Shown here: positions 21,409 to 21,872 of the stretch, piece by piece
Position numbering within the stretch: the stretch's first letter is position 1
How the letters are laid out: every line of letters begins with the position of its first letter
Source: Escherichia coli
GTDB taxonomy: Bacteria > Pseudomonadota > Gammaproteobacteria > Enterobacterales > Enterobacteriaceae
NCBI RefSeq assembly: GCF_003334785.1
Contig: NZ_QOWV01000029.1
Length of the DNA stretch: 25,956 nucleotides
Reading direction: 5' to 3' (one strand)
Translations under genes and position numbers: made by a program
The notes under the pieces: model-generated
Database searches by the model: none
Told to the model about the DNA's origin: nothing
What the model saw: the letters and a program-made list of their open reading frames with translations, nothing else

Positions 21409-21437
21409 ACAAAAAGAAGCCAGCCATCCTGGCTGGC
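21409..21437 (-). terminator. Minus-strand hairpin plus T-run with no annotated minus-strand gene upstream
   Basis: Plus strand AAAAAGAA-GCCAGCC-ATCCT-GGCTGGC; on the minus strand a hairpin followed by TTCTTTTT. Confidence 0.3.
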
Positions 21438-21872
21438 AAGCATGTCATGTACCTCTGGCAAATAAAAGCACTTTATCGGACATCAGTGCTTACACACATA
21501 ATAAACACGGTTCCAGTACCGGTATCATGCTGTTTTCTCCACAGCCTGGCAATTATCCTGTGCAGCGATTGTTTACCCGAATCTGGCGGATTACTTTTCC
21601 TTTATCAATAATCCGGTTGTCGGAAACTCAACTGCAATATTTGAATTATTCTGTTTCGTTATATCAGTTTCTGTGGCTGCCATTTACTTAATTTTTATAT
21701 TCTGAAAGCTCTTTCAGGAAATTGAAAGGGCTGTCGCACCATAACTGTTACTACAGCGAGTATAAACATTCAGAGAACGGACTTATTAGCTATAAAAATC
21801 ACCTGGCGGAAATTTTACTAATTTATGGATTGTGATATTATTAAAGAGTAAAACCAGCCAGCCGAGGTATTT

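Follow-up and report, generated by a model that had tools for sequence, protein, structure and literature searches.

A minus-strand terminator in a plasmid deletion scar upstream of fopA and the candidate small RNA unit of a mobile porin module

The 25,956-nucleotide stretch of Escherichia coli DNA analysed here (assembly GCF_003334785.1, contig NZ_QOWV01000029.1; hereafter the window) carries, in the non-coding gap upstream of a fopA orthologue, a minus-strand terminator with no gene to terminate, from which an unannotated small RNA (sRNA) had been proposed on sequence alone. Our analysis partly supports that proposal. The explanation we somewhat favor is that the terminator closes a conserved candidate sRNA unit of ~145 nt that belongs to a mobile porin module, and that the window holds a relic of it; that some RNA is made from the intact relatives, whether of ~145 nt or in a shorter form of ~85 nt, appears quite probable. 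The window copy itself is most likely a truncated, promoter-less 3' relic in a deletion scar, because the deletion took the predicted promoter together with ~55 nt at the 5' end of the predicted transcript. We interpret the intact block as a putative small-RNA gene because it runs from a promoter-like site to a terminator, contains no conserved open reading frame (ORF) and is better conserved than its flanks.

The hairpin and T-run named in the original prediction were confirmed. The stem-loop (21437..21419, minus strand; GCCAGCCA-GGA-TGGCTGGC) has eight perfect pairs, six of them G-C, and a 3-nt loop; the T-tail TTCTTTTTGT (21418..21409) follows directly on its 3' side, with the RNA 3' end predicted at ~21411. 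A G+C-rich stem, a short loop, an immediate T tract and a TTCTTTTT tail are the features of an intrinsic (Rho-independent) terminator. The hairpin folds at -15.0 kcal/mol, compared with -9.0 +/- 2.6 for shuffled sequences, and ranks first among the terminator-like sites of 20500-23000, where nine partly overlapping sites were found versus 2.2 +/- 1.3 expected. Read on the plus strand, the stem leads into AAGCATG and not into a T tract, and the element is predicted to be able to work in one direction only, on minus-strand transcription. The best proof that the hairpin did not arise by chance is its conservation across variants: of the 11 distinct full-length variants that were folded, 10 have an identical stem and one has a mismatch at the loop-closing pair, and the stem was also unaltered in the other aligned variants of the block. 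The tail reads TTTTTTATAT or CCCTTTTATAT in other lineages, such that its sequence shifts and its T-richness is kept. The terminator is indeed an orphan in the window; no minus-strand gene lies upstream of it, and the sole minus-strand ORF of at least 30 aa, a 30-aa frame at 21591-21683, was rejected as a gene, being antisense to the relic of a colicin immunity gene.

The apparently clean gap around this orphan terminator proved to be stitched together from remnants of genes and the scar of a deletion. It is also longer than the 420 bp first assigned to it, spanning 21291-21872 up to the ATG that the neighboring gene has at 21873 in related plasmids. Positions 12919-25956 of the window are 100% identical to the IncFIA plasmid NZ_AP022179.1, and a BLAST search of 21290-21880 against the plasmid collection revealed a breakpoint: the whole stretch was found in two plasmids only, and its right-hand part (21503-21880) in thousands of the 2,866 matching plasmid records, upstream of a gene annotated as 'ProQ/FINO family'. 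The ancestral backbone order could be taken from pCol1B9 of Salmonella SL1344 (NC_017718.1), in which a hypothetical gene (hyp196) is followed by DUF6404, colicin immunity, colicin Ib (cib), yagA and fopA. Against this order, 20600-21380 of the window corresponds to hyp196 and the 3' end of DUF6404 (92.6% identity to pCol1B9), and 21300-21386 (minus strand) to a C-terminal relic of DUF6404 of 27-29 aa, annotated as a pseudogene in RefSeq (tblastn E = 2.6e-11), the intact gene encoding 115 aa in IncI1 colicin plasmids. The segment at 21392-21503 is the left-edge block of a mobile ompC-like porin/AraC module, equal to positions 4102-4213 of the intact locus L004 (NZ_CP126616.1), and within it 21409..21503 (minus strand) is the retained 3' ~95 nt of the candidate unit. 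To the right follow a 37-aa C-terminal relic of a colicin Ia/Ib immunity gene with an internal stop (21598-21711, plus strand; tblastn E = 4e-12), the DNA of which is 92.7% identical to pCol1B9 10186-10308, and, by comparison with pCol1B9, the native fopA upstream region (21731-21872).

The scar itself was resolved by alignment with L004. The window matches this locus at 100% up to 21503 and then passes from L004 position 4213 to 7690, the missing 3,476 bp (L004 4214-7689) containing the remainder of the unit, a gap of ~800 bp, the porin, the AraC-like regulator and a further ~630 bp. Only 1-2 nt of microhomology are shared at the junction (21503/21504), which points to an illegitimate deletion. 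The identical junction occurs in two plasmids, including NZ_CP069544.1, and in five metagenome contigs. In one of the latter (L027, ERZ773149.10110) it is combined with another left flank that switches exactly at 21392, and the left edge of the block would therefore be a recurrent recombination joint. A plus-strand 101-aa ORF (21386-21691) was rejected as spurious, as it spans the deletion junction. The 420 bp upstream of the terminator are thus not one transcription unit; they consist of the colicin-immunity relic and the block upstream of fopA, DNA unrelated to the terminator segment, to which the deletion joined it. The sole sigma-70-like match upstream of the terminator on the minus strand (TTGCCA-17-CATGAT, 21552..21524, 9/12) does not rise above chance in a region with six promoter-like matches versus 3.0 +/- 1.8 expected. 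The small-RNA proposal is plausible for the intact relatives, where an ORF-free and unusually conserved block extends from predicted promoter to terminator, and is not supported for the interval in which it was made.

Intact copies of the block occur in several contexts. The block was detected in 62 of 5,426 complete E. coli genomes (~1%; 28 chromosomal, 34 plasmid), in 39 records of the plasmid collection and in 20 metagenome contigs, and we distinguished 17 versions of the region across plasmids, chromosomes and metagenomes, 15 of them with the upstream part intact. Four versions lie beside a porin (L004, L006, L011 and L012). In three others (L009, L014 and L015) the block has no porin and sits between a DMT transporter and an alpha/beta hydrolase, and in the L010 plasmid a separate deletion took the porin and spared the whole block. 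In L004 the module continues beyond the block with ~800 bp of non-coding sequence and then an OmpC-family porin on the plus strand (NCBIfam OmpC, 680 bits) and an AraC/YdeO-like regulator on the minus strand. Between the most distant lineages, of L009 type and L004 type, homology of the block covers ~226 bp, extends through the terminator tail and fades ~10 nt past it.

Each of the intact versions L004, L009 and L010 has a single promoter-like site on the strand of the unit, the sigma-70-like TT[CG]TCA-17-GATAAT (10/12 in L009), which is a consensus match only and in intact copies precedes the T-tail by ~145 nt, the -35 hexamer starting ~150 nt and the -10 hexamer ending ~122 nt upstream of the stem. 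We infer that the intact unit would be transcribed from this site, would end at the hairpin and would have a regulatory role in trans. The conservation pattern of the block fits a small non-coding transcription unit. The core (L004 4123-4213) is identical to those of L012 and L006 at 91/91 positions, where the non-coding flanks reach 85-91%, the porin coding sequence 97.7-97.8% and the regulator coding sequence 94%; in L011 the core is conserved at 92%, versus 79-84% for the non-coding flanks, 96.6% for the porin and 92.8% for the regulator. The L009 lineage shows the same gradient of core over flanks, and no other non-coding DNA within the module is as well conserved as the last ~90 nt of the unit. 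No ORF of at least 25 aa was found in the unit, its smaller ORFs differing or being frameshifted among variants with none conserved, and a scan for tRNA and tmRNA returned none.

The predicted 3' part of the RNA comprises a 7-bp hairpin, a UUUUAUUU stretch, a linker of ~22 nt, the terminator hairpin and the U-tail. This second hairpin (21466..21491, minus strand; arms 21466-21472/21485-21491, AAGCACU/AGUGCUU) encloses a near-invariant 12-nt loop, GAUGUCCGAUAA, in which the first 11 bases were invariant over the variants and the twelfth is C instead of A in L009-type copies. It is one of the further perfect short hairpins that had been noticed in the interval and that we also found; another, of 7 bp, lies at 21587-21593/21609-21615, and imperfect repeats occupy 21692-21744.

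Several observations weigh against a ~145-nt sRNA unit. Among 11 distinct variants, none of the 28 predicted pairs had changed on both sides, an absence of covariation that arises because the stems hardly vary and that speaks neither for nor against the predicted structure; the two-pattern scan of 100,044 species-representative genomes yielded no match to the block and the phage collection did not match its sequence, and therefore no distant homologues were available for a covariation test. The folding energies of the unit are only mildly below those of shuffled sequences (z = -1.6 to -2.3), and the T-tail is lost in a decayed copy (L013). Variation within the unit is greatest in its predicted 5' third, whereas an sRNA is usually best conserved in its seed. 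Searches for targets were likewise unsupportive: for the plasmid porin, the AraC-like regulator, fopA and two hypothetical genes, duplex energies at the translation-initiation region were at background, and no complementarity over background was found to the K-12 ompC, ompF and ompA leaders with shuffled controls, a comparison of low power, in which the MicF-ompF positive control was itself weak (z = -1.8). The complement of the invariant loop and linker, sought in the window, gave nothing over background either; an unrestricted duplex scan was discarded, as it was dominated by self-antisense matches. Finally, the block is a recombination joint, and its identical patch could partly reflect recent exchange instead of selection.

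This last point might also indicate that the block is not an RNA gene but a DNA-level element or an insulating terminator, for example one that stops read-through from the porin regulatory region, or a recombination hot spot, with its conservation derived from recent spread and gene conversion; we consider this improbable. It would be consistent with the coincidence of the block edges with recombination joints (21392, 21407 and 21503), with the presence of two further terminator hairpins on the minus strand in the gap of ~900 bp that precedes the L004 porin, with the failure to find either covariation or a target, and with the absence of the block from the species-representative genomes, which implies that it is young and narrowly distributed. 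However, the core exceeds its flanks in three diverged lineages (L012/L006, L011 and L009) and not just in a single pair, the promoter-side breakpoints fall at varied positions and so give no site-specific crossover point, and a positionally conserved promoter-like site at a distance typical of sRNAs would be unexpected for a mere insulator. An origin of the block as a mobile-element end or att site was rejected, given that the promoter-side breakpoints vary by context and no terminal repeats were seen.

The variable 5' third leaves room for a shorter RNA starting by the ATAATATTAT element, in which case the window copy would be complete. Under this alternative, which we regard as possible but unlikely, the retained ~85-nt core would be the whole sRNA, starting just past a (G/T)ATAAT/TATTAT element that abuts it, and the copy in the window, ~370 bp upstream of fopA and divergent from it, would, equally doubtfully, be intact and possibly functional. 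Near-invariance indeed extends from about the ATAATATTATGTGTG element to the terminator, with the ~45 nt upstream being the most variable part of the block; the deletion ends at the very edge of the invariant core and spares the TATTAT hexamer; and the resulting junction persists in the two plasmids and five metagenome contigs, in two left-hand contexts. In addition, a 5' hairpin, spacer, terminator hairpin and U-tail generally recall the FinP-type ligands of FinO-domain proteins (reviewed in PMC9977716 and PMC9674577). Nevertheless, no acceptable -35 or extended -10 was found for the short start in any aligned variant, and the promoter scan was silent there, yet reported TT[CG]TCA-17-GATAAT in every intact context; strong conservation likewise extends over this upstream promoter and the ~15 bases transcribed first. 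That the ~85-nt core is in addition a still-expressed member of a new sRNA family and a ligand of the adjacent FopA (or of host ProQ/Hfq), with deletions of the porin module kept only when they spare it, seems distinctly improbable; if so, a plasmid FinO-domain protein would gain a new trans-acting RNA partner.

Very improbable, and already disfavored by the sequence, is that the terminator belonged to a decayed small protein gene or type I toxin with ORFs of 15-18 codons, a possibility raised by two AUGs just ahead of the hairpin that have GAGG 3 and 8 nt upstream. These ORFs traverse the terminator and have their stops beyond the T-tail, their ends vary among variants (13 aa, 15 aa or open), their peptides do not resemble hydrophobic toxins, and the region contains no conserved small ORF.

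The ~145-nt candidate sRNA unit could not be assigned to a described family. At the gathering threshold, Rfam searches of the whole window returned no family for the interval or the unit, and at E <= 10 (window 21250-21950 and L004 3800-5200) only sub-threshold matches appeared, the best being Hrs1 (20 bits versus 56) and Hrs12 (19 bits versus 70), both of which reflect terminator resemblance only. A full-text literature search with six sub-sequences of the unit retrieved no paper.

Taken together, these results are consistent with the following scenario. The candidate unit forms the left edge of a mobile module with an ompC-like porin and an AraC-family regulator and would be transcribed away from the porin, and this module displaced most of the DUF6404 and colicin-immunity genes in an IncI1/pCol1B9-type backbone. 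A later illegitimate deletion of 3,476 bp took out the porin and its regulator along with the predicted promoter and the beginning of the unit, leaving ~95 nt with two hairpins and a U-tail fused to the fopA upstream region. If the intact unit is transcribed, it would represent an undescribed sRNA family linked to a horizontally mobile porin/AraC module, which is carried by plasmids of the IncI/IncF type and by islands in ~1% of the complete E. coli genomes. To our knowledge, only a few plasmid-borne sRNAs are so far candidates for cross-talk with the envelope regulation of the host or with FinO-domain proteins of plasmids.

The gene downstream of the scar (21873-22467, plus strand, ATG at 21873) is a fopA orthologue of the ProQ/FinO family and not finO, as had been supposed: it scores 28.9 bits with the NCBIfam FinO model, far under the cut-off of 136, and its product has 84% amino acid identity to FopA/YafB of pCol1B9 in the same backbone position. 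A run of nine C residues (21898-21906) introduces a +1 frameshift relative to the ATG, and RefSeq tags the gene as 'frameshifted'. The orthologue reads ACCCCCCCCC where related plasmids and pCol1B9 read AAAACCCCC or AAAACTCCC, which may be a genuine change in the homopolymer or an artefact of sequencing. With a GTG further upstream, at 21832, an ORF of 211 aa with an altered N-terminus is restored.

Other features of these loci were recorded alongside. In the porin-upstream gap of L004 (4400-5020, absent from the window), the two additional terminator hairpins (4635..4616 and 4427..4406, minus strand) are conserved, and 4406-4615 is conserved at 90-93% versus ~85% in neighboring stretches. This gap contains no conserved ORF, and the L004 unit showed no paralogy to the two other terminator-ended stretches past the terminator tail; the hairpins may mark further tandem non-coding units. 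In L009 and L014 (CP057135.1 and NZ_OZ039654.1, positions 1-1600), the block lies downstream of the DMT transporter gene, itself preceded by two adjacent tyrosine recombinase/invertase genes, and this locus may be an invertible switch. Elsewhere in the window, positions 1-12918 are not colinear with NZ_AP022179.1, lacking its IS66 and IS1203 insertions and differing in the first ~3.8 kb. Rfam matches at gathering level identified the sok antitoxin RNA (1316-1473, minus strand, 134 bits) and AgrB (603-690, plus strand, 57 bits). A hypothetical 314-aa ORF (19058-20002, minus strand) in a low-G+C stretch adjoins an IS110 transposase and has a weak N-terminal match to GIY-YIG/group I intron endonucleases (E = 0.005, below cut-off) and a marginal PADLOC match.

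Three known systems offer points of comparison for the candidate unit. In the micF/ompC and micC/ompN pairs, an sRNA gene lies upstream of, and divergent from, a porin gene. The intact unit similarly lies upstream of an OmpC-family porin and points away from it; it is of small-RNA size and has an intrinsic terminator. Unlike MicF and MicC, however, it has no sequence or structure match in Rfam, even at the permissive threshold, it is separated from the porin start by ~800 bp that include two other terminators, its pairing to the leaders of ompC, ompF, ompA and the plasmid porin does not exceed background, and it is also present without a porin (L009 and L010). FinP and Inc are cis-antisense to the traJ and repZ leaders and are hairpin-plus-tail ligands of plasmid FinO-domain proteins (FinO, FopA). 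Like them, the unit is plasmid-borne, has the succession of stem-loop, spacer, terminator stem-loop and U-tail, and in plasmid contexts has a fopA orthologue within a few kb. It differs from them in that the opposite strand has no gene or conserved ORF in every context examined and in the absence of Rfam FinP or RNAI matches; moreover, the proximity to fopA in the window was made by the deletion, the chromosomal copies have no fopA, and the fopA of the window is frameshifted. FinO-domain proteins recognize terminator hairpins with 3' tails (PMC9674577, PMC7367173). Relative to Hfq-type sRNAs, the U-tail of the unit is interrupted (UUCUUUUU) and the predicted 5' region is the least conserved, whereas the Rho-independent terminator with its U-tail, the internal hairpin followed by the U-rich stretch, the lack of an ORF and a length of 85-145 nt are all shared. 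In architecture the candidate unit resembles both sRNAs of the Hfq type and the ligands that FinO-domain proteins bind through a hairpin and tail (PMC9977716, PMC9674577, PMC7491321), and its two-hairpin, U-rich layout would fit an RNA stabilized by Hfq or by a protein of the ProQ/FinO type.
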